Origin: Eledone cirrhosa
Lineage: Eukaryota
Length of the DNA stretch: 64,000 nt
NCBI GenBank assembly: GCA_964016885.1
Contig: OZ024742.1
Coordinates: 173,352,001-173,416,000 of the forward strand
Direction: 5' to 3'
The notes under the pieces were generated by a model that saw only the letters and a list, made by a program, of their open reading frames with translations, ran no database searches and had not been told where the DNA came from. Below are positions 1 through 25,486 of this stretch, piece after piece. Position numbers and translations under genes: made by a program. Numbering within the stretch: position 1 is the first letter of the stretch; each line of letters opens with the position of its first letter.

Positions 1-452
1 TGAATGTATGGTTACATAACCACCGGTGATTTCATCACCCCCAGTGATTTTAGCGTGGCACCATCATGCCGTAGACGAACATAAATATATAGATAAAAAC
101 TTTCAAAAATAAACATAAGTTTCATTGTAATATTTGTTTGTTTGTTTTTTTCCTTTGCCTTTTTCGTGGTAGAGGTGACGGTGGCGGCGGCGGTGGTGGT
201 GAAGTTATTTGGCTGTTGTTTTTTATCCATTTTCTTTATTGACTATAAAATTTCTGATACAAAATTAAATATTAAATAGTGGAGCCCTATGCCATAATGT
301 AAGGCGTTGTCACTTCCTGAGAGGAAAAAAATGATATCTTATGTTCCATTTGTAATAAGAATTATTCTATCACAATTGTTTTAAATATGTAAAAAATCAA
401 AATTTACGGGAGCGATTCCATAAAACTCTATCCACCATGTGCGTATATTCAC
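1..452 (-). mobile_element. 5' UTR of an R4/Dong-like RLE non-LTR retrotransposon (body lies left of the window)
   Basis: Colinear blocks shared with the 5' UTR at 13619-14620: gaatgtatggttacata, cataagtttcattgtaa, ttacgggagcgatt, gtgcgt; ends at the (TAT)n tract as that copy does. Confidence 0.8.
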
Positions 453-477
453 TATTATTATTATTATTATTATTATT
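453..477. repeat. (TAT)n microsatellite, insertion target
   Basis: Perfect TAT repeats between two element 5' ends. Confidence 0.95.
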
Positions 478-690
478 GAATGCCATGGTTGACGGAGGCT
501 CGGCTCTGTAAGGTATAGTAATTTTTAACCGTTAAAACAATTGTAAATTGTTTAAAACTTGAACCAAATTGTTGATAAAGACACCCTCCTCCTCGTGAGA
601 GGGGTCTTTCTGTCCGTTATTTGGCCCTTCGGGGTTAAATAACCAGTTATTGGGGTTTTGTACCCAAAATTTCATTTTAAACAAAAAAAC

Positions 691-2787
691 ATGGCTACGA
701 AAAAGAAATTTCATACGTCACTCCCACTCATTCCGTCTTCTTCTTCCTCAATCATCACTACAGCAGAGAGAAGATTGTCTCTCTCCCTCCCTTCTTTAAA
801 TGTGTCTCTCTCCCTCCCTTCTCTTTCGCAAGCGATGAAAGAAAAGAAAAGTCTCGTGCAAAGCGTGCAAGGTTTCTCCACGACGACGACGACAGCGACG
901 AAACAGGTGTGCGGGAAATACGAAAACCCAGTTCATTCGTCTGACGTCAGGAATAATAGCAGTAGCAGCCGTAATAACAACAGCAACAGTGACAATGAAA
1001 ACAACAGTAGCAGCCGCAACAGCATCACCAGCAGCATAAACAACAACAGCATTAACAGCAGCAACACCAACAACAACCACAGCAACAGCGGCGGAGGCAG
1101 TAGTCGTAGTACCTGCAGCAACAACAAAAGTACCAGCAGCTCTGACGACAACAACAACAGCAGAGAAAAACCAATCTCATTTGCAGGTATTGCGAAAAAC
1201 TTGGAAACAATCCTCATAACAAATGAGGAATTAGAGGAAGCGAAGAAGATGGTGACAAAGAACGGACACCGAGCAATCTGCAAGGCAGCGAAAAATTTTT
1301 TCGAAACCCAAGAGCACTGTACGGTCACGTACCGTACAGTAAGTACAAAATCCCGTAGGGTGGAAAGAGCCACAGAGGCCCAAATACAAAAAGCCTTGGG
1401 GTCTGTGTGGCAGAGGAAAACGCACATCACCCGAGGCAAAAAATACGCCACCGTAGACGTACTTTTTGCCACACCCCAGGAGGCAAAGGCCCAATCAGTA
1501 GTGACACTAAGGAGCGAGGAAATGGTGTTGGTGCCCTCCTACTGCGGGCAAAAAATTGTGAGGGTCAAACTGACCCACGTCCCCCCCGGAATGACCCCTT
1601 CTTGGCTGGCCGCGTCTGTCCTCGTCGGAATCGAGGACAAAACAACTGTACTGCAAGTACAGAAAAAAGTAAGAGAAGATTGGGTCGGCTCCTCCATTGA
1701 GATGCTAATCCAAACCAACCAGGAGTGCATCGAAGCTATCCCGGATGTGATAGACTTCGATAACGGCACTCAACTGCCCATAAGTGTTGAGGGCAAACGC
1801 CCGAAATGCTTTCGCTGTGGATCGAAGACTCACCTCAGGGCCTTCTGCAACGAGAAGACCCTGAGAAAGGAGAAAACCCCCCTCCTTCCGAATCCGGCTC
1901 CACGGCTACCAGCAACAGGACAAGCAGCAACCAGGAACGATAGGTCCGTGGCACCCATACCCACTCCACGGAAATCAAAGACAGCAGCAGCAGTGGAAAT
2001 ATTAACAACAACAACAGCAATACCAAATGCAGCTGCAACAGAGACTCCAGTGCAAACATCACCAACAACAACAAGTGAAAGAGTGGAGCTGGTACCCCTC
2101 CCCGACCTTACAGAATCAGACATGGAGTGTGAGGTGGGAGAGGGATGGCAAAAGGTCGCAAGAAGGCACAAACGCAGAAGCAGCGCATCGTCGCCTTTGA
2201 AAAGGGAGGAAAGAAATGAGAAAAGGGTAAAGTCTACTGCAAAGAGACCCACAGCAGCAACACCACCAACACCATCACCACCCACACCAGCACCACCATC
2301 ACCACCGGCGACAACCCCACCGCCAACAACACCTTCAACACCACCACCACAAGCACCAACATCGCAAACACAACAACAAAACACACACACCCAGCAACAA
2401 CGACAAGAAAATAGCAGAACCACACCCCACCCCCAGAAAAACAAATGCACGGCAATAAACACACACAACAAGAAACTAATGACTTACATAATTGAACACA
2501 CAGACATTTCACAACAGGACTACATAATACCAGCACCAATCAAAACGCCAACTAACATAAGACTGCTAAAAATAGCACAGAAACAATACACAAACATTAA
2601 AACGAAATTCCCCAACGCAGTTGGTGATTTCTGGGACCTAGGAGGAACCATCAATCGAAGAGTATATTCAGACATTCTCTTAGAAGAGCCGACGACCAGC
2701 CGAAGGGACGATTCAACGGTCCCTTCACCAGACGATCAAGTGAAAAGGGATGTAAAAACCATCCCTCCTCTACCAAAAGTACGGTAA
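691..2787 (+). CDS. Tx1-like ORF1 (gag-like nucleic-acid-binding protein)
   Basis: Zinc knuckle CFRCGSKTHLRAFC, N/S-rich and P/T-rich low-complexity tracts, EGWQKVARR motif; first ATG at 691 (ORF track starts at TTG 658). Confidence 0.85.
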   Translation: MATKKKFHTSLPLIPSSSSSIITTAERRLSLSLPSLNVSLSLPSLSQAMKEKKSLVQSVQGFSTTTTTATKQVCGKYENPVHSSDVRNNSSSSRNNNSNSDNENNSSSRNSITSSINNNSINSSNTNNNHSNSGGGSSRSTCSNNKSTSSSDDNNNSREKPISFAGIAKNLETILITNEELEEAKKMVTKNGHRAICKAAKNFFETQEHCTVTYRTVSTKSRRVERATEAQIQKALGSVWQRKTHITRGKKYATVDVLFATPQEAKAQSVVTLRSEEMVLVPSYCGQKIVRVKLTHVPPGMTPSWLAASVLVGIEDKTTVLQVQKKVREDWVGSSIEMLIQTNQECIEAIPDVIDFDNGTQLPISVEGKRPKCFRCGSKTHLRAFCNEKTLRKEKTPLLPNPAPRLPATGQAATRNDRSVAPIPTPRKSKTAAAVEILTTTTAIPNAAATETPVQTSPTTTSERVELVPLPDLTESDMECEVGEGWQKVARRHKRRSSASSPLKREERNEKRVKSTAKRPTAATPPTPSPPTPAPPSPPATTPPPTTPSTPPPQAPTSQTQQQNTHTQQQRQENSRTTPHPQKNKCTAINTHNKKLMTYIIEHTDISQQDYIIPAPIKTPTNIRLLKIAQKQYTNIKTKFPNAVGDFWDLGGTINRRVYSDILLEEPTTSRRDDSTVPSPDDQVKRDVKTIPPLPKVR

Positions 2788-2822
2788 GTGGTCTTTCCCA
2801 TCTTTTCCACTCTATTTTAAAC

Positions 2823-5800
2823 ATGACCTCACTCAGAATAGGCAGCATAAATGCGCGTGGCTTGGGGTCGTCATGGAAGCAGGGTCAGCTGCTCAACGAC
2901 CTCAGGTCACTAAACATAGATGTAGTGGCCATCAGCGAGACCAGAATCTCCGAAGCACGGGCCTTCGCACCGATCTTCGGCGGCTACGATGTGTACGCAT
3001 CTCCCAGCCGTCCTGGATCGGGTGGAGGAGTTGCTGTGCTTTTTCGGAGAGGTTTGGATCTCGCCATACGGGCTATCTTCCTGGACCCAGAGGGTAAGCT
3101 GGTGGTGCTGGACGTGACCAGCGGAGACGGGCAAGCTTTCAGGCTAGTGGCCGTCTATGCCCCGACAGGAGCAGGGCGGCCTGATTTCTTCCGGCGTCTG
3201 GAGACCTTCCTTGGAACGTCCCGCTCTTTAGTGTTAGTGGGCGACTGGAACGGGATCTTAGATGCACGCTGGGACTGTGTGGGATTAGCGGATAGGGGTG
3301 GAGGGTGCAAGAGCCTCACCAACCTGCTCAGGCGTTTTGAACTGTCTGACAGGTACCGATTGGATTTCCCGAATGTGCCAATGTGGACTTGGACAAACCG
3401 CATAGGGTCATCCAGATCATATCTAGATAGAGTATTTTGTAGGGAAATAGATAGGTCTAGCATAGGCTGTCCACAATTCAAGATAGTCAGCTACACGGAC
3501 CACAAATTCGTGACCTGTGTGCTTGACTTAGATAGGCTTCATAGACGAGGACCCGGCTACTGGAAGCTAAACGCGTCCTTACCAGCGCGCAAGGCCTACA
3601 GAGACCGGATTAGCGAACTAGTTAAGCGGGCGTTGACGGGGGCCATCGTCAACAACAAGTGGTGGTTTGCTCTGAAAAGAGCGATTAGAATAGAATCGAT
3701 TAGGTTTAGTAAGGCTTTAGCAATAGAGAAAAATAGAGCAGAGGGAGAACTAGTTAGAAAATTAGACGAGGCGCTTAGCAAAGGCATTGCGACCGACGTG
3801 CTTGCGGCGAAATTGGCCCTTGACCAATTCTTCAATGCAAAGCACGAAGGCTGCGTTGTCAGAGCTAGGGTGCGTGCTCTCAGACACGAGGGGACGAAAG
3901 CCGTTCAATGGGCCAGAGTGGCGGAGGCGCGTCGTGGCAACAAAGCCACGATCCGGTCTTTGGTGGACCACGACGGGCGCATGCTACTCGATCCCGGGCA
4001 AATGTGTGAAGCTTTTCAGCGACACTTCGCTCAGCTGTTCGGGGGAAGTGGGGGGCCGGGTAGAGGGATGGACTTTAGTGTCTACCTCGACGGACTGCCG
4101 CGGCTCTCGGCCACTGAGGCGAAGTGTTGCGAAAAGCCGATAACAGCCGCTGAAGTACGGGAGGCAATGACTGGCTGCACAAGGGGTAAATCGCCTGGTT
4201 TGGATGGTCTGCCCTATGAACTTTACGTACAGATGCCAGACTTGTTCGGAGGCCTATTGGCGGACGTCTACTGCAACTGGCAACAGAACGGGAGAATTCC
4301 CAGTTCTGTGAGCCGAGGAGCGTTGGCACTGCTGAGAAAGGATCCGAACAAGGGGGATAACATAGACAATTTCCGGCCCATAACTCTGCTAAACACAGAG
4401 TTTAAGATTTTGGCCAAGGTGCTAGCAAAGAGGTTGGCGCTTGTCGTTGGTGGTCTGGTGGGAGAGGCGCAGACATGCGCCATTCCCGACATATCCATCC
4501 ACGACAACCTCCACCTCATGCGATACATCGTAGAGAGGGTAGCTAGGGAACCTGGCACGGGTGGGTCCTTGATCAATTTAGATCAGTCGAAAGCTTTCGA
4601 TAGGGTCGACCATCGTTACCTAGCGGCAGTCCTGAGGGCGGCTGGCTTTGGGCCCGTCTTCAGAGGCTGGATCGCTGCCATGCACAGCGACATCTGCTCT
4701 GTGGTGAGAGTGAACGGTCACCTGTCGGAACCGTTCAACATCATGCGCTCGGTCCGCCAAGGATGTCCCCTCTCGTCCCTCTTGTACGTATTGACTCTCG
4801 AGCCATTACTGCACAAACTGGAGACGTTGAGGGGAGTCCCGCGCGAACTAGGATGCGGAAGATCCGTGTCAGCATATGCGGACGATGTCACCGTAGTGGT
4901 GTCGAACGCCAAACACATCGAGGCGATCGGCACTACACTAAGAGAATACGAAGCGGTGACAGGAGCAATGATCAACCAGGAAAAGTCAGTGGGCCTGCAG
5001 CTCGGCACCTGGAGAGGCAGGTCCATGCCGTCCAACAGCGTCGTCGGGCGCTGGACGGACGGACCGGTTAAATTGCTAGGGGTCTGGTTCGGTCCGGACC
5101 TCCAGACGGACAAAAACTGGGACGAGGTGACGAGCAGGGTGGCTTCTCTCACCCAGAAATGGGCGGAGAGGAAGCTATCCCTGAAAGGTCGAGCGGAGGT
5201 GGCTAACGCGTACATCGCGTCTGTCATCTGCTACCGCCTAACCGTCGTACCTTGTCCTAAGCCTCGCCTGACTGCGCTGGAGCGTTTGCTCTTTCGCTTT
5301 TTGTGGAAGGGACGTGCTCCGATGGTCAGGCGGTCCATCTGTTGTCAACACCCGCTACGTGGAGGGCTGGGCATGCCGTGGCTGATGATGCGCAGGCACG
5401 CGCTCAGGCTACGACATCTCCACCTTTTCCTCGACGGTGATCAGGTGTGGTCGCCGTTTGCTAGACGCGTTTTTCCCCAGCTCGTTTCCTTGACGGAGCT
5501 GCAGTCCTGGGTCAAGCGAAGACCGAGAGGGAGCGCCTGGAGACTGGAATGTCTTCAGGCGCTCACAGCCCTCGACCAATCGGGCAATGTGATCGGTGGA
5601 AACTCCACCTCGGCGTTCTATAGAGGATTAGTGGAGGGGAAGAGCGACGACGTACTTGGGGAAACTCTAGGCGTCGACGAAAATCAACTAGCCAATCTCT
5701 TCGGAAGAACTTTCGGGCCAGGGCCTATGGACAACTTCCAGAAATCTCTGGCCTGGCAGTGCTACCGAGGAGCCTTGCCAGTTCGGGATAAACTCTACAG

Positions 5801-6242
5801 GCATGGAGGTGCCGTCAGCCGGGCATGTCCGAGATGCGCGCAGGGCGACGAAACCGTCCTGCACGCACTCGTCCAGTGTCCGAAAATTGCTGACTTGTGG
5901 GTTTATGTCGAACACCTGCTGTCGCGTTTAGGACGGATCCAGCTATCATCTGAGTCTATCGTGAGGATTGCCCCGCCCTCCTCCTTTAGCCGGGAAGGGC
6001 AGGCAGTTTTTATCTGTCTGGTGGCCATGGCGAAAGAGATAGTATGGTGGACACGTTTGAAAGGGCTGAAGACGAGCACTTACCTCTTCGGTGATGCTCT
6101 GATTGACTTTTTCAAATTTCATTTGAAAAGGAAAATCAGAGTAGAGAAGGAAGTGCTCTCTTCCCAGCATTTTGTTGAAAGATGGGTGAGAGAAGCAAGA
6201 ATGGCCCGAGTGAATGGGCCGACTCTGAGTATATATCTGTAA
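2823..6242 (+). CDS. Tx1-like ORF2: AP endonuclease + reverse transcriptase + C-terminal zinc finger
   Basis: APE motifs SINARGL, ISETR, VYAP, GDWN, YLD, TDH; RT motifs KSPGLDG, FRPITLLN, DQSKAFD, VRQGCPLS, YADD; C-terminal CPRC-x8-H-x4-C. Confidence 0.95.
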   Translation: MTSLRIGSINARGLGSSWKQGQLLNDLRSLNIDVVAISETRISEARAFAPIFGGYDVYASPSRPGSGGGVAVLFRRGLDLAIRAIFLDPEGKLVVLDVTSGDGQAFRLVAVYAPTGAGRPDFFRRLETFLGTSRSLVLVGDWNGILDARWDCVGLADRGGGCKSLTNLLRRFELSDRYRLDFPNVPMWTWTNRIGSSRSYLDRVFCREIDRSSIGCPQFKIVSYTDHKFVTCVLDLDRLHRRGPGYWKLNASLPARKAYRDRISELVKRALTGAIVNNKWWFALKRAIRIESIRFSKALAIEKNRAEGELVRKLDEALSKGIATDVLAAKLALDQFFNAKHEGCVVRARVRALRHEGTKAVQWARVAEARRGNKATIRSLVDHDGRMLLDPGQMCEAFQRHFAQLFGGSGGPGRGMDFSVYLDGLPRLSATEAKCCEKPITAAEVREAMTGCTRGKSPGLDGLPYELYVQMPDLFGGLLADVYCNWQQNGRIPSSVSRGALALLRKDPNKGDNIDNFRPITLLNTEFKILAKVLAKRLALVVGGLVGEAQTCAIPDISIHDNLHLMRYIVERVAREPGTGGSLINLDQSKAFDRVDHRYLAAVLRAAGFGPVFRGWIAAMHSDICSVVRVNGHLSEPFNIMRSVRQGCPLSSLLYVLTLEPLLHKLETLRGVPRELGCGRSVSAYADDVTVVVSNAKHIEAIGTTLREYEAVTGAMINQEKSVGLQLGTWRGRSMPSNSVVGRWTDGPVKLLGVWFGPDLQTDKNWDEVTSRVASLTQKWAERKLSLKGRAEVANAYIASVICYRLTVVPCPKPRLTALERLLFRFLWKGRAPMVRRSICCQHPLRGGLGMPWLMMRRHALRLRHLHLFLDGDQVWSPFARRVFPQLVSLTELQSWVKRRPRGSAWRLECLQALTALDQSGNVIGGNSTSAFYRGLVEGKSDDVLGETLGVDENQLANLFGRTFGPGPMDNFQKSLAWQCYRGALPVRDKLYRHGGAVSRACPRCAQGDETVLHALVQCPKIADLWVYVEHLLSRLGRIQLSSESIVRIAPPSSFSREGQAVFICLVAMAKEIVWWTRLKGLKTSTYLFGDALIDFFKFHLKRKIRVEKEVLSSQHFVERWVREARMARVNGPTLSIYL

Positions 6243-6502
6243 ACTAAAGGTGGAAAACTGGGAGAGGGCACTTGCCTTGGTGGTCAGGGTCATTGTGGCT
6301 TTTTACTTGGCTTTCTCCACAAATGTCCCTCCGAAGTCTCCCCCCTATTGGGGAATTTTTCATTGTTATTTTCATTGTTATTTTTGTTACATCCTCTGTT
6401 TTTGTTTTTTTACACGCAGAAATGCCCATTTGTACCGTCCTGCATTGTCCTGCACTGTCCTTAATGTCTACTTTATATAAACCCTTGTGGTTAATAAAGA
6501 AA

Positions 6503-6504
<2 letters not shown>

Positions 6505-6537
<33 letters not shown>

Positions 6538-6549
6538 GTTATTGTTATT
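6505..6549. repeat. (ATT)n microsatellite between two element 3' ends
   Basis: ATT repeats with GTT variants. Confidence 0.95.
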
Positions 6550-9500
6550 CCTTGAATCTCAGTCATTGATGTTGGTTAACTGGAAAGTCCGTTGGATTGA
6601 ATATCAAGCCACTACCTGCAGCCTCAGATATTCAGGACGTATCGGAGGGTTCTTGCCGTTCCAAGCAAGCATGCCTTTTGAAGCGTTCCAAAAAGCGTGA
6701 AGGGGCCGATTTTCTTTAACCATCCCTGGAAACCTTTGGAGATAGTCCCCAGTGCGCCTATGACAATCGGGATCACTTTGACTTCATGGCAGTTCCAAAT
6801 CCTTTTCACCTCCCACTTTAGGTCCTGGTATCGGTCAATTTTCTCCCTCTCCTTCTCTTGCACTCTCGTGTCGAACGGGCAGGCCACATCCACAATCAGG
6901 CACGATCTTTTTTCTTTGTCCACAACCACCAGGTCAGGTCTATTGTGTTCCAGTTTTTTGTCCGTCTGTATCCTAAAATCCCACAGCACCTTCACCTGAT
7001 TGTTCTCCATCACCGCCTCTGGCCTATGCTCATACCATTTCTCAGAATGTGGTAGATTGTTTACTTTGCACAGGTGCCAGTGGATCACCCTGCCCATCAC
7101 ATCGTGTCTCCAGCCCTTATAGTGGGTCTGGGCTAGGTGTTTACACTCGGACACAATGTGAGCCACAGTCTCCTCTCTCTCTCCACAGATCCTGCACAGT
7201 GGGCTAGCCTCCTCCTTGTAGATATGGTGCTTCAACCACTTCGTTTTGAGGGCCTGCTCCTGCGCAGCCATTAGCATTCCTTCTGTAGCCTTTTTGAGGT
7301 CTCCTCTTCTCAACCAGTTCCATGTCTGTGGATCTCTAAATTCAGTTTTCTCAAAGAAGGTACTATGAAGGGATTTTCCCTTAAGGCTGCTCTTCCTCCT
7401 TGATGTTATTTCCTCCTTGGGTATCCCCTGGCCTACTGTCCCCTCCTTCAGTACAGCTCTGAGCATTGGCTCCTTACTATAGGTCACGTATTTGTATAGG
7501 TTGTTTTTCTCCATCTGAACACAGTCCTCTATGCTGATAAGACCTCTTCCACCCTCAGATCTCCTTAGGTAGAGTCTATCGACATCACTCCTCTTGTGGA
7601 ACATGTTGTAGATAGTCAATAGCTTCCTAGTCTTCCTATCCATTTCTTTTTGTTCAGCAACATTCCATCTCAGAATTCCCGCACTGTACCTAATAATAGA
7701 CACAGCTCGGGAATTTACTGCGCTTATGGCATTTCTGCTGTTCAGATGTGACTTCAATACGCTCCTTACTCTCCGAATGTATTCAGTTCTTAACAATTCC
7801 TTCATTTTTTTGTTCTTTATGCCATCAGCCTCCAGAACGCCCAAATACTTGTATCCTTCCTCAGAGTCAATTTCCTTTATCATCTCACCTGTTGGTATCT
7901 GGATCCCGTTACTTCTGCTCAACCTACCCCTCCTCATCACAATGACTCCACATTTACCAATACCAAACTGCATACATATATCACTGCTGAAAATACGGAC
8001 AGTGTCAACAAGCACATCCAACTCCTTCTCACTTTTCCCGAAGAGCTTAAGGTCGTCCATGAAGAGGAGGTGATTGATGGTAAGCTCTCCCCTTCCCAAC
8101 TTGTATCCTGCTCTCACTTTTCGCAGCATAATGGTCAAGGGCATCAGGGCAAGGACAAACAACAGAGGGGACAGGCTATCTCCCTGGAAGATACCTCTCT
8201 TGATCTTCACGCTTCCCAAGGATACTCCAGTTGATGTCAACTCTGTCTCCCAGGACCCCATACTCCTGCCCAGCAACTGTCTGATGTTATCTGCCACCCT
8301 GAAGATCTCCAGGCTTTTGGTGATCCAGGAATGAGGCACCATGTCAAATGCCTTTCTGTAGTCTATCCATCCCATGGCAAGATCAGTGTGTCTCCTCCTG
8401 CAATTCCCCATTACCATCTTATCAATAAGCAACTGGTCCTTTGTACCACGTGACTTCTTTCGGCATCCTTTCTGTTCGTCCGGCAACAAGTTGTTTGTGT
8501 GGAGGTGATGGCAGATTTCCTCAGACACAATGCTCGTCAACAGTTTCCACATTACGGGCAGACATGTGATAGGTCTATAGTTGGTGACATCATTACCCTT
8601 GATTTGGTCTTTCATTATCAGAACTGTGGTACCTTTTGTCAACCACTCTGGCACCTCACCCGACACCAAGCAGTCATTGAACATGGCCGTCAGCTTCGGG
8701 TGGAGGGATGTTAAATGTTTAATCCAATACCCCTGCACACCATCTGGGCCTGGTGATTTCCAGTTGGTTAGTTTTTTGGCTTGCCCCTTAAGAGTTTCAA
8801 CTGTGATACTCAAATCAGTCTGTTGCTGTGCCTGCTCACCGATCTCCCTCTGTACTGTCTCAATCCACCCTGCCTGGGCATTGTGTCTAACATCCCGCTC
8901 CCATATTCCTCTCCAGAATGTTTTAGCTTGTTCCGCCCCAGGGATCAAGTCGGTGCCTCTTTCTTTCCCCTCAAGCTGTCCAAACAGCATCTTCTGGTTG
9001 TTGTCGAACATGCGGTTCTGTTTATACTGACTGACTCTGTTCTCGTATCGCCTGATTTTGGCACTCTTTGCTACAATGCGTTGCTTCAATTCCTCTATGA
9101 TAATATTTAGCTTTTTACTCCTAGTTTTGTATTTTATTTCCAGTCTATTTTTAGTGCCTATGTTTTTTAGTGTCCCATTCAGTAGTGACTCAAGCTTTCC
9201 TATGTCATTTCTCATTTCCCCGATTTGCCCACTCAGTCGCTTCTTCCACCACGGCTCTGCTCTTTCTTGTCTGTTGTTTCCTCTCGCTTTTATACCAAGT
9301 AGTTTCCTCACCGTATTTGCTGTTGCTTTGAGGATATTGTTGCACTGGTGAAGACTCCTCGCCTCAAGGTATGGGATGACTTTGTTTACCTTAGCTGTTG
9401 TTTCTTTTAACTTTTTCCTGTCTACAAATCTTAGGTTCATAGGTCTCCCACTATCATTGTTCAACTCATCTACCACTAAATTTAGGATGTCAACCGAATC

Positions 9501-10063
9501 TTGTCCTAGCCCGTCAGCATTCATCTCCTCAGTGGCCGTATCTCTGTTCCAGGTATTATTTATCTCAGTATTCAGATCATTGTCTGCTTCGGGTGGTTCC
9601 TTCGCTCTCAGGACCTCCTCACCTTCATTTCCCGCCGGCTCGCTTGTCTGGCATACTACACCCGCCATCTCCAAGCCATTCTCTCTGCTCAGTTCCTCCA
9701 GTTCCAGCTCGCTTATCCACCCATTAGTTCTTATTACCCGAGCCTGCCCGGCCAATTTTTGTTCATCTAATTTAAATAAACCAATCTCGTTCCAGATGTT
9801 ATGCATCCGTCTCCTGTAGCCCCTCTCCTTGGGGTTACTTTTCAGGTAGCATTGCATAACAGTTCTATTCAATTCTTTCGTCCAGTTGGTTCTGGCCCCT
9901 TTCCTTCTTCTTCTTCCTCCAACATCAGCAGTATTTCGTTGACAGTCAGGTTCCTGCTGCTGAGCCAGGGGGCACCTGTTGGGTGAGAGTCTGTCACATG
10001 ACGTTCTAGTCTCCATTTCACCGTTATTCGAACTGTTTATGTTCGATATTTAAACACTCTTAT
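6550..10063 (-). mobile_element. R4/Dong-like RLE retrotransposon, copy 1 (intact ORF, 5' UTR truncated)
   Basis: Single ORF; short 3' UTR; near-identical to copy 2 but homology stops about 45 nt upstream of the ATG, at (TAT)n. Confidence 0.9.
6624..10016 (-). CDS. RT + restriction-like endonuclease (R4/Dong-like), 1130 aa
   Basis: N-terminal WTKELNRTVMQCY; RT WKSPGPDG, NYRPITCL, DYRKAFD, GIFQGDSLSP, FMDDLK; CCHC CRICGEREETVAHIVSEC; RHD; RLE RPDLVVVD..IVDV..K..RY. Confidence 0.95.
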   Translation of the reverse strand: METRTSCDRLSPNRCPLAQQQEPDCQRNTADVGGRRRRKGARTNWTKELNRTVMQCYLKSNPKERGYRRRMHNIWNEIGLFKLDEQKLAGQARVIRTNGWISELELEELSRENGLEMAGVVCQTSEPAGNEGEEVLRAKEPPEADNDLNTEINNTWNRDTATEEMNADGLGQDSVDILNLVVDELNNDSGRPMNLRFVDRKKLKETTAKVNKVIPYLEARSLHQCNNILKATANTVRKLLGIKARGNNRQERAEPWWKKRLSGQIGEMRNDIGKLESLLNGTLKNIGTKNRLEIKYKTRSKKLNIIIEELKQRIVAKSAKIRRYENRVSQYKQNRMFDNNQKMLFGQLEGKERGTDLIPGAEQAKTFWRGIWERDVRHNAQAGWIETVQREIGEQAQQQTDLSITVETLKGQAKKLTNWKSPGPDGVQGYWIKHLTSLHPKLTAMFNDCLVSGEVPEWLTKGTTVLIMKDQIKGNDVTNYRPITCLPVMWKLLTSIVSEEICHHLHTNNLLPDEQKGCRKKSRGTKDQLLIDKMVMGNCRRRHTDLAMGWIDYRKAFDMVPHSWITKSLEIFRVADNIRQLLGRSMGSWETELTSTGVSLGSVKIKRGIFQGDSLSPLLFVLALMPLTIMLRKVRAGYKLGRGELTINHLLFMDDLKLFGKSEKELDVLVDTVRIFSSDICMQFGIGKCGVIVMRRGRLSRSNGIQIPTGEMIKEIDSEEGYKYLGVLEADGIKNKKMKELLRTEYIRRVRSVLKSHLNSRNAISAVNSRAVSIIRYSAGILRWNVAEQKEMDRKTRKLLTIYNMFHKRSDVDRLYLRRSEGGRGLISIEDCVQMEKNNLYKYVTYSKEPMLRAVLKEGTVGQGIPKEEITSRRKSSLKGKSLHSTFFEKTEFRDPQTWNWLRRGDLKKATEGMLMAAQEQALKTKWLKHHIYKEEASPLCRICGEREETVAHIVSECKHLAQTHYKGWRHDVMGRVIHWHLCKVNNLPHSEKWYEHRPEAVMENNQVKVLWDFRIQTDKKLEHNRPDLVVVDKEKRSCLIVDVACPFDTRVQEKEREKIDRYQDLKWEVKRIWNCHEVKVIPIVIGALGTISKGFQGWLKKIGPFTLFGTLQKACLLGTARTLRYVLNI

Positions 10064-10094
10064 TATTATTATTATTATTATTATTGTTGTTATT
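10061..10094. repeat. (TAT)n microsatellite spacer
   Basis: TAT repeats between R4/Dong copies 1 and 2. Confidence 0.95.
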
Positions 10095-13000
10095 CCTTGA
10101 ATCTCAGTCATTGTTGTTGGTTAACTGGAAAGTCCGTTGGATTGAATATCAAGCCACTACCTGCAGCCTCAGATATTCAGGACGTATCGGAGGGTTCTTG
10201 CTGTTCCAAGCAAGCATGCCTTTTGAAGCGTTCCAAAAAGCGTGAAGGGGCCGATTTTCTTTAACCATCCCTGGAAACCTTTGGAGATAGTCCCCAGTGC
10301 GCCTATGACAATCGGGATCACTTTGACTTCATGGCAGTTCCAAATCCTTTTCACCTCCCACTTTAGGTCCTGGTATCGGTTAATTTTCTCCCTCTCCTTC
10401 TCTTGCACTCTCGTGTCGAACGGGCAGGCCACATCCACAATCAGACACGATCTTTTTTCTTTGTCCACAACCACCAGGTCAGGTCTATTGTGTTCCAGTT
10501 TTTTGTCCGTCTGTATCCTAAAATCCCACAGCACCTTCACCTGATTGTTCTCCATCACCGCCTCTGGCCTATGCTCATACCATTTCTCAGATTGTGGTAA
10601 ATTGTTTACTTTGCACAGGTGCCAGTGGATCACCCTGCCCATCACATCGTGTCTCCAGCCCTTATAGTGGGTCTGGGCTAGGTGTTTACACTCGGACACA
10701 ATGTGAGCCACAGTCTCCTCTCTCTCTCCACAGATCCTGCACAGTGGGCTAGCCTCCTCCGTGTAGATATAGTGCTTCAACCACTTCGTTTTGAGGGCTT
10801 GCTCCTGCGCAGCCATTAGCATTCCTTCTGTAGCCTTTTTGAGGTCTCCTCTTCTCAACCAATTCCATGTCTGTGGATCTCTAAATTCAGTTTTCTCAAA
10901 GAAGGTTCTATGAAGGGATTTTCCCTTAAGGCTGCTCTTCCTCCTTGATGTTATTTCCTCCTTGGACATCCCCTGGCCTACTGTCCCCTCCTTCAGTACA
11001 GTTCTGAGCATTGGCTCCTTACTATAGGTCACGTATTTGTATAGGTTGTTTTTCTCCATCTGAACACAGTCCTCTATGCTGATAAGACCTCTTCCACCCT
11101 CAGATCTCCTTAGGTAGAGTCTATCGACATCACTCCTCTTGTGGAACATGTTGTAGATAGTCAATAGCTTCCTAGTCTTCCTATCCATTTCTTTTTGTTC
11201 AGCAACATTCCATCTCAGAATTCCCGCACTGTACCTAATAATAGACACAGCTCGGGAATTTACTGCGCTTATGGCATTTCTGCTGTTCAGATGTGACTTC
11301 AATACTTCCTTACTCTCCGAATGTATTCAGTTCTTAACAATTCCTTCATTGTTTTGTTCTTTATGCCATCAGCCTCCAGAACTCCCAAATACTTGTATCC
11401 TTCCTCAGAGTCAATTTCCTTTATCATCTCACCTGTTGGTATCTGGATCCCGTTACTTCTGCTCAACCTACCCCTCTTCATCACAATGACTCCACATTTA
11501 CCAATACCAAACTGCATACATATATCACTGCTGAAAATACGGACAGTGTCAACAAGCACATCCAACTCCTTCTCACTTTTCCCGAAGAGCTTAAGATCGT
11601 CCATGAAGAGGAGGTGATTGATGGTAAGCTCTCCCCTTCCCAACTTGTATCCTGTTCTCACTTTTCGCAGCATAATGGTCAAGGGCATCAGGGCAAGGAC
11701 AAACAACAGAGGGGACAGGCTATCTCCCTGGAAGATACCTCTCTTGATCTTCACGCTTCCCAAGGATACTCCAGTTGATGTCAACTCTGTCTCCCAGGAC
11801 CCCATACTCCTGCCTAGCAACTGTCTGATGTTATCTGCCACCCTGAAGATCTCCAGGCTTTTGGTGATCCAGGAATGAGGCACCATGTCAAATGCCTTTC
11901 TGTAGTCTATCCCTCCCATGGCAAGATCAGTGTGTCTCCTCCTGCAATTCCCCATTACCATCTTATCAATAAGTAACTGGTCCTTTGTACCACGTGACTT
12001 CTTTCGGCATCCTTTCTGTTCGTCCGCTAACAAGTTGTTTGTGTGGAGGTGATGGTAGATTTCCTCAGACACAATGCTCGTCAACAGTTTCCACATTACG
12101 GACAGACATGTGATAGGTCTATAGTTGGTAACATCATTACCCTTGATTCGGTCTTTCATTATCAGAACTGTGGTACCTTTTGTCAACCACTCTGGCACCT
12201 CACCCGACACCAAGCAGTCATTGAACATGGCCGACAGCTTCGGGTGGAGGGATGTTAAATGTTTAATCCAATACCCCTGCACACCATCTGGGCCTGGTGA
12301 TTTCCAGTTGGTTAGTTTTTTGGCCTGCCCCTTAAGAGTTTCAACTGTGATACTCAAATCAGTTTGTTGTTGTGCCTGCTCACCGATCTCCCTCTGTACT
12401 GTCTCAATCCACCCTGCCCGGGCATTGTGTCTAACATCCTGCTCCCATATTCCTCTCCAGAATGTTTTAGTTTGCTCCGCCCCAGGGATCAAGTCGTTGC
12501 CTCTTTCTTTCCCCTCAAGCTGTCCAAACAGCATCTTCTGGTTGTTGTCGAACATGCGGTTCAGTTTATACTGACTGACTCTGTTCTCGTATCGCCTGAT
12601 TTTTGCACTCTTTGCTACAATGCGTTGCTTCAGTTTCTCTATGATAATATTTAGCTTTTTCCTCCTAGTTTTGTATTTTATTTCCAGTCTATTTTTAGTG
12701 CCTATGTTTTTTAGTGTCCCATTCAGTAGTGACTAAAGCTTTCCTATGTCATTTCTCATTTCCCCGATTTGCCCACTCAGTGGTTTCTTCCACCACGGCT
12801 CTGCTCTTTCTTGTCTGTTGTTTCCTCTCGCTTTTATACCAAGTAGTTTCCTCACCGTATTTGCTGTTGCTTTGAGGATATTGTTGCACTGGTGAAGGCT
12901 CCTCGCCTCAAGGTATGGGATGACTTTGTTTACCTTAGCTGTTGTTTCTTTTAACTTTTTCCTGTCTACAAATCTTAGGTTCATAGGTCTCCCACTATCA

Positions 13001-13882
13001 TTGTTCAATTCATCTACCACTAAATTTAAGATGTCAACCGAATCTTGTCCTAGCCCGTCAGCTTTCATCTCCTCAGTAGCCGTATCTCTGTTCCAGGTAT
13101 TATTTATCTCAGTATTCAGATCATTGTCTGCTTCGGGTGGTTCCTCCGTTCTCAGGACCTCTTCACCTTCATTTCCCACTGGCTCGCTTGTCTGACATAC
13201 TACACCCGCCATCTCCAAGCCATTCTCTCTGCTCAGTTCCTCCAGTTCCAGCTCGCTTATCCATCCATTAGTTCTTATTACCCGAGCCTGCCCGGCCAAT
13301 TTGTGTTCATCTAATTTAAATAAACCAATCTCGTTCCAGATGTTATGCATCCGTCTCCTGTAGCCGCTCTCCTTGGGGTTACTTTTCAGGTAACATTGCA
13401 TAACAGTTCTATTCAATTCTTTCGTCCAGTTGGTTCTGGCCCCTTTCCTTCTTCTCCTTCCTCCAACATCAGCAGTATTTGTTTGACAGTCAGGTTCCTG
13501 CTGCTGAGCCAGGGGGCACCTGTTGGGTGAGAGTCTGTCACATGACGTTCTAGTCTCCATTTCACCGTTATTCGAACTGTTTATGTTCGATATTTAAACA
13601 CTCTTATCGAGGATTGGCGAATGTATGGTTACATATCCATCTGTGGATCCGCCATTCCACTTGGCCCTTGTGTGGCATTATCACCACGCTGTATACGAAC
13701 ACACGTAAACAAACAAACACACAGGCAGAAAGGGCCCCAAAAATGAATAAGCATAAGTTTCATTGTAACGTAGTGTTCGAATGTCTGACTTAGTTTTTGT
13801 TTTTTAAGTTTTAGTTTCCCCCCCCCTCTTCTCTGTCCGTCCGCCTGCTTCTCTCTTCATTCTTATTTTCTTTACGTTTTGG

Positions 13883-13918
<36 letters not shown>

Positions 13919-14620
13919 TTTTTCTCTGTTTGTTTTTCTCGTTTTTTGCTGTTATTGCTGTGTTGCTTTGGTTTTGTTGTTTGTTTTTTCTTTTTTCTTT
14001 TGAGTCTATCTATATATTTTGATGCCTTCCTCTTTTTTTAGCAGTAGGGATACTATAATGTGGTGGCAGCAGCCACCTGAAAGAAGTGGGAGACTGGCGG
14101 CGGCAGCGATACTGAGACAGTGGTGGTGGTGATGTCGATACCGATGCAGTGGTGGTGGTGATGTGGCCGTATTACTGTAGTGATGGTGCTGTAGCGGTGG
14201 TAGCAGTGAAGGAGTGAAGGGGTGGTGGCGGCGGTGATGGGATAATGGTTGTAATGATGGCCGTAGTGAGCGGTGGTGGTTTAGTGTACACAGGTGATAG
14301 GGTGGGCGGTGTATCTAGTTTCTGGTGTTGGTGAGTTTGGCTTTTCTATATAGTGTAGACAGAGGAGGGGGGGGTTCTTCTTCCATTTATAGCCATTTTC
14401 TTTTTTGGATATACAGTGTACAATACAAAGTTGAATATTTGAATATTTGAGCCTTATAACAATATATTTTGGGTCCGAATTTTTTGGGGCTCAAGCCGGG
14501 TGCTTTACGTAGCATTTGTACTAAGAGTTGTTATTTCACAAATGATTTAAATATGTTAAAAATTCAAAACTTACGGGAGCGATTTCATGACCTCCGTCAC
14601 CTCGTGCGTCTTCTTCCCTA
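10095..14620 (-). mobile_element. R4/Dong-like retrotransposon, copy 2 (full length, about 1.06 kb 5' UTR, ORF disrupted)
   Basis: Near-identical to copy 1 over the ORF and 3' UTR; extends to 14620 where (TAT)n resumes. Confidence 0.9.
10169..13560 (-). pseudogene. Disrupted RT-RLE ORF of copy 2
   Basis: GAG->TAG stop at 12733-12735 and a 1-nt deletion near 11306 (aatacttcc vs aatacgctcc in copy 1) split it into 275, 418 and 377 aa ORFs. Confidence 0.9.

Positions 14621-14662
<42 letters not shown>
14621..14662. repeat. (ATT)n microsatellite
   Basis: Perfect ATT repeats. Confidence 0.95.
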
Positions 14663-14664
<2 letters not shown>

Positions 14665-14674
14665 AATAATAAAC

Positions 14675-14774
14675 ATATTTACACGCACAAAACCGACATC
14701 GTACATTCCTGTACCGTCCTGTGCCGTCTGTAATGTTTTTCTTGATGTCAGCCCTTGTGGCCAATAAAGAAATC
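14675..14774 (+). mobile_element. Severely 5'-truncated Tx1-like element (3' UTR only)
   Basis: Aligns with 6408-6504: tttacacgca, tgtaccgtcctg, taatgt, cccttgtgg, aataaagaaatc, followed by (ATT)n. Confidence 0.85.
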
Positions 14775-14790
14775 ATTATTGTTATTATTA

Positions 14791-14856
<66 letters not shown>
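14775..14856. repeat. (ATT)n microsatellite
   Basis: About 27 ATT units with few variants. Confidence 0.95.
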
Positions 14857-14857
<1 letters not shown>

Positions 14858-17800
14858 AGTTGCATTTATCTTGCTTTATGTTCATACGAGTTATCACCAA
14901 GTCACAACCAGTGACCTCAAGAGACAACAAGGTCCGCCATGTTCAAGAAAGAACATACATACTCACACATGCATCTTTAGTGTTTAGACTTGTGATGTAC
15001 CTATATTGACAGAATCTTCCTTAGTATATGGGCAGTTCCCATTAGTACTATCTTTTGTATTTCTCCTATACGCGGGTTTCCTGGGATTTGCGATAAGTAA
15101 TCATTAGACCCCTTAGGTATCATTCCCAGAGCGCCTACAACCGCTGGTATTGTTTTAGTTCTCAATTTCCACATTTTTCCAATTTCTATCTCCAGGTCCT
15201 TATACTTGCTCAATTTTTCAAATGTTTTTATAGATACATTCTTGTCTATTGGAACAGACATATCAATTAGCAGGCATACCCTCTTTTTAAAGTCCTTCAA
15301 TATTATATCAGGTCTATTTGCATTTATTTTTCGGTCTGTTTGGATGCTAAAGTTCCACAAGATTGAGATGTGATCTTTTTCAAGTATGGAAGGTGTTTGA
15401 TGCTCCCACCAATTCTTTTGATGGGGCAGGTCAAAATGCTTACACATTATCCAATGTATGTATTGTGCAGCTCTGTCATGCCTGTTTAGGTATTCGGTTG
15501 GAGCTATAGGATTGCACATTGAAATTATATGGTCAATGGTCTCTGGTTGTTTTTTGCATTCACGGCATAATGCGCTGCATCCATTTTTTATTATGTTGGC
15601 TTGGTAATATTTTGTTGGCAGACACTGATCTTGTGCTGATATAATCAGTCCTTCAATCTCCGATTTCAGTCCAGAGGATGCCAACCACTGATGGGTTGAA
15701 GTTTTGTCAACATCAGGATTGTTAGCTCGCTCTGGGTATTTTCCACACAGAGGCTTTTCTTGCCATTTCTTAACCAGTTTCTGTAGCAGTTCTTTCTTTG
15801 CAGTTACTTTTACCTGCTTTGCTTTTTCTGTGTTTTCCATTTCAGCAGTAAATGGGACTTCTGAAATTTGTAGTCCATTATTGTATCTTTGTGCATCTTT
15901 TGTAATGGAATATGATCTTTTGATGCTTTCGTGTTTCAAAACGAGTTTGATCATCCAATCATGTGATTCCCTTAGATATGTAGATAATCCAATTGTTGCA
16001 GTTTTCAACGCAATGTCTAACTGGATTAACCCACGTCCTCCTTCTTTCCTAGGGAGATATATTCTATCTATATCTGCCTTAGGGTGATGCATTCTGTGCA
16101 TGGTTAAGAATTTTCGAATTTTTGTATCGAGCCTACCGATCTCTGTGCTTGACCAGTTGATGACATTGTAACTGTAGGTTACTACTGGTATGGCAAGCGT
16201 GTTTATGGCATCGATCCTATTCCTTGCATTCAATTCCGTTCTTAAGATTGCTCTTAGTCTGCGGTAACATTCCTTCCTTATCCTTTCCCTCATTGTCGAG
16301 TACTTGATTCCGTCTCCTTCACAAACACCTAGATATTTGTAAGTTGTTTCTTGATCAAGTTCTCTTATCACGTTCCCCCGATCAAGATTAATGTCTGAAC
16401 TCTTCAGCAGCTTTCTTCTGGTGAACGTTGCTTTGGCGCATTTATCTAGTCCAAACTCTATTTTAATGCTATCACTGAACTGCTCCAGAGTGGATAATAG
16501 CCCTTGCAATTGTTCATCATTTTTTGCAAATAGTTTCAGATCATCCATGTAGAACAAGTGATTAATGGTTTTGTCATAGACTTTATATCCATGTTTTGTT
16601 TCATTGAGCATTTTACTTAATGGTATAAGTGCGATGCAGAATAAAAGCGGTGATAAAGAGTCACCCTGAACAATTCCACAATTAATATTAACTTCTCCAG
16701 CTTCCAGTGATTTTTTTCCACTATTCAAAAGGAGTGTCGTTTTCCATGTCTTCATACTGAATGACAAAAACCTCCTGACAACGGGGGATATTTTGAAAAT
16801 CTCTAAACATTTTTCAATCCAACTGTGTGGCAAACTATCGAATGCTTTTTTATAATCTATCCAAGCAATCGATAGATTTTTGTGTCTATTATGACAATCT
16901 TCCAGTATCATTTTGTTAACCAGAAGCTGATCCTTACAGCCATATGAGCCTCGTTTACACCCCTTCTGCTCAATGGGAAATAGGTCATTTGTTATCAGGT
17001 GGTCATATGTGTATTCAGTTAGGACTGATGTTAAAATGTTATACATTGTGGTCAAGCAAGTTATCGGTCTGTAATTTTGGGGATTGTTTGTCTCATGATA
17101 CTTCGGAAGCAGGAATGTAATGCTGTTAAATAGCCATGATGGTATCTTTTCTGGCTCCTTAACTATTTCATTGTAAAGTTGGGCTAACAGCTCATGAGAC
17201 TCTGTGAAGGCATTTATCCTAAAGTTTTGTATTTTGTCTTTTCCTGGGGATTTCCATTTGCTGGTTTTTCTTAGAGCCAAGCGCAACTGTTCAACTGTTA
17301 TGTTTTACCATATTTGTTCCTCAAGGTGAGCTGTATCTTTCATTTGTCTGTCTATCCATGGGCATGTATGTTATGAACCTTTTCTCCGGCCCAGATCTTT
17401 TCCCAGAATTCTTGCACTTCCTCCTTGGGTGGTATTGATTTAGCAGTTATTGTTGACTTACCAAGTTTTCTGTAGAAGTTTCTTTGGTTGTTTTTGAACA
17501 TATTATTGTCCTTATAGAATCTAGATCGTTTTTCAAAGCGCCTTATACGAGCAGCTTTGGCCGACACTTTTTGCTTGATTATTTCTATCAGCATGTCTAT
17601 GTCACATGTTGATTTTATACTGTACTTTTTTTTCAATTTTTTCAATTTAGTTTGTTTAACATGTTCACGTACTTTATAGTTTGTTAAAATTTATATGTCA
17701 GATCGGAGAAGGTTTATTTGGCGATTGATGTTCTCTTGCCAATTAGATTTCTTATGGGAATTCCTTTGTTTTCTCATCTTCACTCTACATAAGTGAGTGG

Positions 17801-18815
17801 TGACTTTAGCCGATGCATAACAGAGATGATTTAAATCAGTAATGCTTAGTTTGTTTGTGATGATAATGTGTTTGAGAATTATGTTAGTCTTGTGTATTAT
17901 CTTTTGGTTCTGTTTGGAGTTCTGGATCTTAGGGAGGGTGTCTGGTTGCCCCATGTCAGATTCTTTCATTTTCATCCATTCGATCATAATTTCATCCTTC
18001 AAGTTGGCAAGTTCATTCTCATTCATTTCTTTATCATTTACGATCTCATTATTTTCATTTGGAGTTTCATCTTGAGCATGCACTCCCTCCACTTTTTCGA
18101 TCCTTTCTTTAATTTGTTCTGTTGCCAGTGATTCCGTCCCAACCCTGGGATTCGAAGTGTTACAATTTACCTCGTTTTCACTGACACGTGTTTCATTTTC
18201 CCTTCGCTGACTTTGTGCTAATAGCTTGATCTGATCAATTTCTATATCAGTTAGTAACTTTTTTCTTACAATATTTCTTCGTATATTGGCTAGTTTGTTA
18301 CTGTCAATATAGCCTCTGTTTTCGGGATGTTTCTTTTTCCAGTTAATATATGTCTGTTCTGTATTCGATGTATTTGATGGGTAGTACATGGCAGTGTAGA
18401 AAGCCTCAAGGACTTCTTTATTATCTTCCCTTGACCATTTTTCTCTCTTTTTCTTTGGATTTCTTGGTGGTGAGCATGGAGGGCCAACAGTAGGAGTATT
18501 CCGGTTATGGGAGGTCTCCAGCTCCGAAGTGATGGGAAGGTTAGAACCATTAGCTGATTTTTCGACCCCAGTCTGGTTCCTCTCTGAGGGACGCGGCCCT
18601 TTTTTACCCGGGTGACGGCAGATCCGGTATGAGATTTTATCATTAGACATTTACTTTATTTTGTCGCGTGTTATCCTTATCCGCCAAGGGGTTATCATTT
18701 CGTGTTACCACTTCTAGAACGAGTGTCAACCAAGACTAGCGGGGTCGTTCTCCCCTAGAGACACGGCTATTCCCCGCCGGCCGCCATCCCGGTATTTCTT
18801 GGTCACGGGGTTTTA
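14857..18815 (-). mobile_element. Divergent R4/Dong-like retrotransposon, copy 3 (decayed; 5' boundary uncertain, may reach about 19545)
   Basis: Same domain order as copies 1 and 2; 3' UTR abuts (ATT)n; 19482-19545 resembles the copy-2 5' UTR at 14308-14360. Confidence 0.85.
15001..18650 (-). pseudogene. Frameshifted RT-RLE ORF of copy 3
   Basis: 319 + 97 + 761 aa pieces: WSREDNKEVLEAFY, WKSPGKD, DYKKAFD, QGDSLSP, YMDDLK, CRECKKQPETIDHIISMC, RHD, RPDIILKD. Confidence 0.9.
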
Positions 18816-18890
18816 TTTATTTATTTTTTATTGTTATTATCATGAGTGGTTCCTTAATGTGAGCATTGCGTGGCTTAAGAATGAAATTAT

Positions 18891-18942
18891 TAATAATTGT
18901 CTCCACTCCAGGCACAAGGCCAGCAATCACCCAGTGCATTAC
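18891..18942 (-). mobile_element. 3' tail fragment of the tRNA-derived SINE
   Basis: taataattgtctccactccaggcacaaggccagcaatcacccagtgcattac matches the SINE tail at 23500-23551. Confidence 0.75.
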
Positions 18943-22560: not shown

Positions 22561-22914
22561 ATTCATTCAACTATGCTGACGTCCATCTGATATATAATAA
22601 ACGAATAGCTTACATTCTAACATGAATCATGCTTATATGTTCGGTTTCCCTTTAACCAAAGATTTATTGTTAGTTGAGTGTTGCATTACGTGACATCATG
22701 TGGCAATTTGTTCTTTAAATATTTTGAAATGTGACGTAAGTTATAAAGCGATACTTTATTTCATTAAGGTAAAAACCTGATATTAAACGATTTTGAATTA
22801 TAATTATCGGATAGCAAATACTGTCATGTAATTTCTCATCGTTGTTAGAGAAGTGAAAACAAGACACATCATCCTTAATAACGGTTTCTACTATAGGAAC
22901 GAGACCATACATTT

Positions 22915-24954: not shown

Positions 24955-25420
24955 TCAAGCAAGATACCAGTAATGGTGAGAGGCAAAGTTATCCTCGACT
25001 GCATTTGAACTCACAATGTATAACACCGATATAAATGCTGCAAAATGTGTAACGCCGATATAAATGCTGCAAAATTTGTTCTCAGACACTAACGATGGTG
25101 CCAATCTATCTTTCTCTATGGTATGGTGGAGTCGTAAGGTCGCTGTGGTGGCATACATCGTTTCGTCGGCATTTAAACGCTTGTGGAGCTCATCAATCAC
25201 AGCAGATTTCTTCAAGAGAAAGATACAATGTGAGAGAGAGGAAGAGAAAAAGAGATATACAGGAAGAATCGACTCCAGTACTAGACTGGTACTTTTTTCA
25301 TAGACCTCGAAAGGATGAAAGGCAAAGCTCACCTCGGAACAATAAGAACTCAGAATATAAAACGCCTGTATAAATGCCGCAAAACAGTTTCTCAGATACA
25401 GTAAGGATTCCACTAAACTC
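24955..25420 (-). mobile_element. Two degenerate SINE copies
   Basis: ggcaaagtt..cctcg..atttgaactca at about 24982-25013; ctggtact..aaggatgaaaggcaaag..cctcgg..gaactcagaa at about 25286-25355. Confidence 0.6.
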
Positions 25421-25486
25421 TCTTTCTATATGGTAGTTATTAATTATTATCAGATGAGTCATGCCTCTATTATGATTTCAAATACT

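Follow-up and report, generated by a model that had tools for sequence, protein, structure and literature searches.

The window analyzed here is a 64,000-nucleotide stretch of Eledone cirrhosa DNA (assembly GCA_964016885.1, contig OZ024742.1, positions 173,352,001 to 173,416,000 of the forward strand). At its left end, it carries an array of long interspersed nuclear elements (LINEs) of two unrelated lineages, which face in opposite directions within one TAA microsatellite. Elements with a restriction-like endonuclease (RLE), of the Dong/R4 type, lie on the minus strand, and elements with an apurinic endonuclease (APE), of the L1/Tx1 type, lie on the plus strand across positions 1-18812 (Table 1). 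The array is real: its order, strands and repeat tracts, as described in an earlier note on this DNA, were found as written when re-read from the sequence. A moderately likely explanation, and the one favored here, is that both lineages repeatedly inserted into a single (TAA)n/(TTA)n microsatellite via target-primed reverse transcription, and that a non-coding module found beside Dong2, called X, most likely represents the 5' region of the Dong1/Dong2 lineage, derived from a Tx1-type 5' untranslated region (UTR).

Table 1. Elements, modules and repeat tracts of the array and its right border (window positions; ORF, open reading frame)
Feature	Positions	Strand	Length	Description
Module X0 ("Dong0" of the earlier note)	1-452	-		Non-coding, cut by window edge; first ~232 nt homologous to Tx1 5' UTR
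Tract	453-476		24 bp	(TAT)8; between 5' ends of X0 and Tx1
Tx1	477-6504	+	6.0 kb	Full-length L1-group/Tx1-type APE retrotransposon, two ORFs; ends AATAAAGAAATC-(ATT)n
Tx1 5' UTR	478-690	+		~64% identical end to end with 5' parts of X0 and X2
Tx1 ORF1	691-2787	+	698 aa	Low-complexity ends, central RNA-binding/CCHC-like region
Tx1 ORF2	2823-6242	+	1139 aa	APE endonuclease, reverse transcriptase, CCHC zinc domain; frame open
Tract	6505-6549		45 bp	Between 3' ends of Tx1 and Dong1
Dong1	6550-10059	-		Open 1130-aa ORF from 10016 to 6624; only 43 nt upstream of ATG
Tract	10060-10094		35 bp	Separates 5' end of Dong1 from 3' end of Dong2
Dong2 body	10095-13603	-		98.1% identical to Dong1; one frameshift, one premature stop
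Module X2	13608-14620	-	1013 bp	Tx1-like 5' UTR with ATG in register; low-complexity stretch (decayed); poly(A); a 3' block also found in X0
Tract	14621-14663		43 bp	(ATT)14; between 5' ends of X2 and Tx1 stub
Tx1 stub	14664-14774	+	~110 bp	~97 bp of 3' UTR preceded by 14 unmatched bases
Tract	14775-14856		82 bp	Between 3' ends of Tx1 stub and Dong3
Dong3	14857-18812	-		RLE element with stops and frameshifts; separate lineage, 26-39% aa identity to Dong1
Right outer flank	18813-18845			Degenerate (TTA)n-like
Third module X piece	19098-19545	-		Decayed, middle part only, beyond Dong3

The repeat reads (TAA)n in the sense of the Dong elements and (ATT)n in the sense of Tx1, and this phase, also claimed earlier, was borne out at the junctions. 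(TAA)n is present at both ends of Dong1, at the 3' end of Dong2 and, via X2, at its 5' end, and at the 3' end of Dong3, the 5' flank of which is degenerate. Outside the array, runs of at least four TAA units cover 12 of 45,100 bases, so the clustering within it is not due to chance; (TTA)n tracts make up less than 0.03% of the remainder of the window. Two of the five tracts (453-476 and 14621-14663) sit head-to-head, between two 5' ends, and therefore cannot be 3' tails. Thus, the APE family of the window entered a pre-existing repeat twice, and the proposal that the repeat is a target and not a tail alone holds at both head-to-head junctions.

Other parts of the earlier description need qualification. 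Of the six insertions it listed, Tx1, the stub and Dong1 to Dong3 stand, but "Dong0" (1-452) contains no Dong coding sequence within the window; it does resemble the 1-kb module upstream of Dong2, and this likeness is its sole identification. The strict opposite polarity has no exception in the array, on a basis of only two APE and three coding RLE insertions. The ORFs are open in Tx1 and Dong1 but broken in Dong2 and Dong3. The suggested promise of both elements as integration tools is weak, considering the lesions of Tx1 at conserved sites, the short 5' region of Dong1 and the lack of a unique address in TAA tracts; with these tracts dispersed and the copies showing decay, the value of such tools is low.

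Dong1 has the layout of the Dong/R4 clade, i.e., a single ORF in which the reverse transcriptase (RT) is followed by a CCHC zinc finger and a restriction-like endonuclease. Its product matched RVT_1 (E = 1e-22) and zf-RVT, and its translation contains the CCHC motif and RPD..VD..K-type (PD..D-type) motifs, with a weak match to the endonuclease domain REase (E = 0.27). A single ORF with RT, CCHC and an RLE-type motif, combined with a TAA target, is also found in Dong of Bombyx mori and in DongAg and DongBg of the R4 clade, and the TAA target of Dong is published (PMC3812793) and was given as established in the earlier note. In an RT tree of 34 rows, none of which was a named Dong, R4 or Tx1 element, the RLE and APE groups split at 100/100; Dong1 and Dong3 fell within one 15-row clade (100/100), in different subclades. 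Dong3 is probably the oldest element of the array, because it is the most decayed. It has its own, unrelated 5' UTR of 160 nt.

The plus-strand element carries the label Tx1 from the earlier note, which agrees with the ORF1/ORF2 layout of that clade; no named Tx1 protein was among the database matches of this element. Its layout is that of the clade, with two ORFs, an N-terminal APE domain, an RT, a C-terminal CCHC domain and affinity to the L1 group. ORF2 matched the Pfam families PF03372, PF00078 and PF13966, its best match in PDB was human L1 ORF2p (E = 9e-53), and the best named match of the RT region was from Argonauta hians (73%). It deviates at 12 columns that are at least 90% conserved among its 14 aligned relatives. 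ORF1 is 22-27% identical to the ORF1 of relatives, and its Atlas look-alikes carry zf-CCHC/ZCCHC3-type domains at 0.90-0.93, which serves as a lead only. The stub is 72% identical to the Tx1 3' UTR over 98 nt and belongs to a different Tx1 subfamily. Both subfamilies nevertheless have an identical terminal 12-mer and an identical ATT phase. At window position 581, in a hairpin of the Tx1 5' UTR, contigs of two public sequencing runs (X4 and X6) both start; perhaps, this is a subfamily branch point.

The alignable stretch of Dong1 and Dong2 is 3549 bp long, with repeat at its start and at its end. Within the ORF, they differ by 63 substitutions, of which 29 are silent, whereas the same mutation spectrum predicts 17.5 (P = 0.0006); when trinucleotide context was taken into account, the excess remained (P = 0.001), and dN/dS, the ratio of non-synonymous to synonymous change, was 0.32. 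Because of this excess of silent changes, Dong1 and Dong2 are, as judged from their sequences, descendants of different source elements that were under selection. This bears on the very unlikely alternative that the array is partly an assembly artefact or the result of local tandem duplication, with Dong1 as a copy of Dong2. The high identity of the two elements and the repeat at both of their ends would fit such an origin, as would the contig data: when four public runs were aligned to positions 1-10110, with repeat flanks excluded, no assembled piece spanned the stretch. An excess of silent changes, however, is not expected from post-insertion duplication, alleles or read error. In one of these runs (X1), depth rises toward the 3' end of each element, in opposite directions, as in multicopy families that are 5'-truncated upon insertion, although summed contig depth is no measure of copy number; run X22 matched a low-complexity patch only. 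A wider search gave matches in 20 public runs from 15 studies, none of them an RNA run, which says nothing either way.

Beyond the window, the polarity of Dong holds in a second host. A bacterial genome bin, G001, carries animal-like contigs, which shows contamination of the bin, and six of its Dong regions were sampled (one of three tandem copies on contig C16 was taken, and two weak matches were excluded). In these regions, all 12 TAA/TTA tracts read TAA in the Dong sense, and five of the six have a tract within 125 bp of a 5' alignment break, in line with the TAA target published for Dong (PMC3812793). The closest retrievable relatives of Tx1 were found in the same bin; they are 41-42% identical in ORF2 and form the sister group of the window's Tx1 at 94/99. 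Their 86 matches lie on 16 contigs, with a single orientation per contig.

Several observations weigh against targeting, mostly on the side of Tx1. Only two Tx1 insertions are available, and for both to be oriented opposite to Dong has a 1-in-4 chance alone. The closest relatives form head-to-tail arrays with unique outer flanks, and the 95 scanned loci of such relatives (38 from G001) contain no run of at least four TAA units. The use of TAA is thus not inherited from that group and, if real, is particular to the lineage in the window. Also several other Dong fragments in G001 have no tract at the break. Both Tx1 copies in the window have (ATT)n at the 5' junction (n = 2 only), which may be read next to the criterion of a published survey, in which a family is called target-specific when more than 20% of its copies are flanked by one sequence type (PMC4494074). 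Exact pattern scans for the Tx1 3' junction gave no hit in metagenome contigs or in viral contigs, and among candidates from viral contigs scanned with the Tx1 and Dong proteins, none of 85 and none of 32, respectively, was confirmed.

It is also conceivable, but unlikely, that Tx1 is not targeted at all, that (ATT)n is only its tail and that the element landed through a general AT preference or survived at a harmless site. L1-group enzymes prefer AT-rich T/A steps, the two insertions are at a locus chosen for its striking look, and the relatives have no TAA flanks, all of which would suit this explanation. It leaves unexplained, however, that both Tx1 5' ends adjoin 24-43 bp of pure repeat, which no tail can provide, that such tracts are very scarce in the remaining window, and that two different subfamilies are involved.

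The relatives in G001 deserve a remark of their own. Contigs C3-C15 and C17-C19 (loci L056-L091, L094, L095 and L104-L115) contain pure head-to-tail arrays of Tx1-type LINEs, with units of ~6.4-6.8 kb, most full-length ones without stops, and several subfamilies, some of them 5'-truncated. These arrays are embedded in host DNA, and no microsatellite or telomere repeat was seen at their junctions; perhaps, they are self-targeting. A telomeric nature of these arrays was considered but found no support, as the examined loci lack telomere repeats and at least one array has host DNA on both sides. A distant Tx1-type ORF2 (28%) in locus L092 of G002 lies between two matches to U1 small nuclear RNA (snRNA), at 3036-3199 and 9961-10137, which exceed the Rfam gathering score, and possibly belongs to a U1-associated family.

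Target-primed reverse transcription is established for LINEs. Applied to the order of the elements, their strands, the repeat at the head-to-head junctions and the separate sources of Dong1 and Dong2, which can be read directly, an inferred priming model would run as follows. Dong RNA would end in (UAA)n and prime on the nicked (TTA)n strand, and Dong would then always read (TAA)n. Tx1 RNA would end in AAUAAAGAAAUC(AUU)n, with priming at a T/A step of the nicked (TAA)n strand, and the element would then read (ATT)n. Each insertion would split the tract and add a tail, with the target staying available for the next insertion. As repeat is left on both sides each time, the array could keep growing.

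The opposite polarity may follow equally from strand-selective nicking or from pairing between the RNA tail and the target. A rather unlikely variant is that the polarity is set by the enzymes, each endonuclease being sequence-specific and having evolved to nick a different strand of (TAA)n. The APE domains of target-specific LINEs can indeed cut their own repeat, as described for the endonuclease of TRAS1 (PMC2868851), Tx1 families specific for TC, TTC and TTCC/TTTC exist (PMC4494074), and the tract was hit twice by Tx1. But tail-target pairing would yield an identical polarity, and the Tx1 relatives show no use of TAA. Moreover, the TRAS1 endonuclease cut both strands, with an equal half-maximal effective concentration on plasmids with and without the repeat (PMC2868851). 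Because of this cutting of both strands and weak selectivity on plasmids, we lean to tail pairing combined with a relaxed T/A preference. The preference of Tx1 would then probably represent lineage-specific tuning of L1-type T/A nicking and tail pairing, and not necessarily a newly strict endonuclease. With two chemically unrelated endonucleases acting on one 3-bp repeat, the array offers a clean test of whether the nuclease or the pairing of the RNA tail determines the choice of site and orientation.

Module X, the Tx1-like 5' part of which goes unmentioned in the earlier note, connects the two lineages. X0 and X2 share two blocks, one of 84 nt with 83% identity and one of 72 nt with 75% identity, and are collinear as far as the window edge; the third piece is 77% identical to X2 over 90 and 77 nt. 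A fragment (18886-18942) of a dispersed ~190-bp repeat adjoins this third piece. An end-to-end alignment of the Tx1 5' UTR with the initial ~232 nt of X0 and of X2 keeps the ATG in register, and the identical columns number 137 of 212 and 134 of 209, respectively. None of 2000 shuffles reached the joint global score (z = 7.8 for dinucleotide and 6.6 for block shuffles), which was also the best non-self score among 5104 windows (142.5 vs. 100). Among 1797 ATG-anchored, GC-matched controls, the best non-overlapping score was 87 vs. 146.5, and the four scores that were higher or near overlap X. The shared 5' module is pointing to 5' capture across clades or to a separate non-coding element. In Tx1, the in-register ATG opens ORF1, and in X it opens only a 16-codon or a 72-codon low-complexity frame, which suggests Tx1 as the donor.

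Tx1, X0 and X2 carry motifs resembling a splice donor, GTAAG(T), at a distance of 30-45 nt from their 5' ends (508-513 on the plus and 14575-14570 on the minus strand); such motifs also follow the ORF1 stop (2782-2789, plus strand) and are present in the UTRs from G001. The middle of X, which is variable, might represent an intron.

Not all results agree with this derivation. In local alignment, the likeness between X and the Tx1 5' UTR is marginal (z = 3.5-4.5), with an AT-rich window at 63.6 kb scoring 41 vs. 38.5, and the global test was designed only after the likeness had been noticed. The likeness stops at the ATG, downstream of which 10-28 of 200 shuffles reached the score. Since the Tx1 UTRs of G001 align with neither X nor the Tx1 UTR of the window, the direction of transfer is unpolarised. 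Furthermore, the sequence downstream of X0 lies beyond the window edge. Searches of G001 and G002 with module X returned low-complexity matches only.

How X relates to Dong is seen best at the joint between X2 and Dong2. The repeat said to be present at every internal junction is represented by five tracts of 24-82 bp elsewhere, but X2 and Dong2 are joined by four repeat bases, TTAT (13604-13607), exactly where Dong1 ends. It is fairly likely that X is the 5' region of the Dong1/Dong2 lineage and that Dong1 was truncated at a microhomology. This reading is favored because the 3' block of X does not match the Dong 3' UTRs (67-253 of 300 shuffles reached the score) and its likeness to the Tx1 3' UTR is compositional: in a whole shuffle only 1 of 300 reached the score, but under composition-keeping shuffles 30-123 of 500 did. 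For the same reason, module X as an internally deleted Tx1 was rejected at the 3' end, and X does not share its 3' end with a partner LINE, Dong or Tx1, as a short interspersed nuclear element (SINE) would. An inverted repeat of 6 bp lies across the joint of X2 and Dong2 (13585-13611, minus strand), a weak hint that both sides form one RNA.

The shared breakpoint of Dong1 and Dong2, ATAA|GAGTG, would also fit a separate, non-autonomous element X that has a head derived from Tx1 and was inserted in the polarity of Dong. In this case, Dong1 and Dong2 would both be full length with a 5' UTR of 43 nt, the array would comprise at least seven insertions, and Tx1-derived DNA would be present on both strands. 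X0 and X2 diverge more (75-83% in conserved blocks, and 452+ vs. 1013 bp in length) than Dong1 and Dong2 do, the third piece of X lies apart from any Dong body, and the 5' UTR of Dong3 is short and unrelated, all in line with such an element. Nevertheless, its existence is doubtful: in the shuffles described above, the 3' block matches no Dong 3' UTR and resembles that of Tx1 in composition only, the joint with Dong2 consists of the four repeat bases only, and truncation at a microhomology is an ordinary event.

If X is indeed the 5' region of the Dong1/Dong2 lineage, it could go back to a template switch, or to a Dong that was inserted, in sense, into the 5' region of a Tx1. Tx1 ORF1 contains three short TAA-like runs, all in sense, so Dong could land there in sense, a possible route only. 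X would supply Dong with a promoter, replacing the self-cleaving ribozyme of silkworm Dong, and Dong1 would be 5'-truncated at the ATAA microhomology. For the 5' end of silkworm Dong, a ribozyme like that of hepatitis delta virus (HDV), which cleaves at the 5' junction, was described (PMC3774820); in contrast, none was found here, and Dong2 has the 1-kb Tx1-like module instead. The ribozyme was shown for B. mori Dong, and its universality in the clade is not established. The negative result, no match in four Dong and X 5' regions, was obtained with a home-made descriptor without a positive control, which also weakens the derivation of X given above. One match of this descriptor, in the Tx1 5' UTR, was rejected, as 18 of 376 tiles of the window and 15 of 200 shuffled sequences scored as high. 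An Rfam scan of positions 1-20000 gave nothing at gathering level and only sub-threshold microRNA-type matches, and the 5' and 3' ends folded no better than shuffles (z = -1.7 to +1.0).

R1, an APE element, and R2, an RLE element, share the multicopy 28S ribosomal DNA, but use separate sites in the gene, in the same orientation and without a repeat as target. In L1 lineages, the 5' UTR can be replaced by a 5' region from elsewhere; here, the shared 5' region differs in that it crosses the divide between RLE and APE elements that have a common target. Target-specific elements belong to the RLE, Tx1 and R1 groups (PMC4640811), and in Octopus vulgaris both Dong-R4 and L1-Tx1 have been active recently (PMC13282606, Table 1 for Dong-R4). 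Two LINE families, SART and TRAS, are stacked in opposite orientations in the (TTAGG)n repeat of the silkworm (PMC10088271). These are both APE elements of the R1 clade in telomeres, whereas here RLE and APE clades meet in an interstitial microsatellite: the target is TAA, and ordinary repeat-rich DNA continues for 45 kb rightward. Hence, the Dong half and the principle of opposite-facing elements in one repeat are already known.

The targets given for Tx1 families are TC, TTC, TTCC/TTTC, snRNA genes, transposons and telomere repeats (PMC4494074, PMC10088271). Microsatellite-specific members, such as Kibi, Koshi, the crocodilian TTCC/TTTC families and Tx1-1_ACar, resemble the element described here in having two ORFs, the order APE-RT-CCHC and simple repeat on both sides. 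They differ in their targets, TC, TTC, TTCC/TTTC or telomere repeats, and in the sections of these two sources that treat them none uses TAA or ATT or shares its tract with an RLE element. The accessible sections of PMC3747384 and PMC9115989 contain nothing on TAA targeting. A literature search found no TAA-targeting Tx1, although Repbase, Dfam and the repeat library of PMC13282606, which were outside its reach, may hold one, and within the same scope it found no 5' UTR common to RLE and APE elements. TAA as the target of a Tx1-type element is probably new, on thin numbers, and the 5' module shared between Dong and Tx1 is the most novel point.

If the Tx1 half is true, TAA would join the known targets of Tx1-type elements, and SART/TRAS would have an interstitial, cross-clade counterpart. 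If X was captured from the 5' region of a Tx1, unrelated LINEs would have a route for promoter swaps in the targets that they share. As a tentative scenario, an octopod Tx1 lineage would have newly adopted the TAA microsatellite of Dong in the opposite direction, and the shared target would have let Dong capture the Tx1 5' UTR with its promoter, replacing read-through transcription and the ribozyme. A practical warning is that repeat libraries may merge or mislabel the 5' ends of Dong and Tx1.

The remainder of the window contains other repeats. Open frames at 30718-32083 (plus strand), one of which was scanned without a Pfam match, resemble a decayed Penelope-type RT. A dispersed, SINE-like repeat of ~190 bp, with 70-94% identity between copies, is found, partly in tandem, at 22870-23684, 25267-25674, 45159-45264, 46037-46228 and 49193-49399. 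A broken Helitron-like element with PIF1 helicase domains (34918-39040, minus strand) precedes a 234-bp tandem pair (39754-40225).

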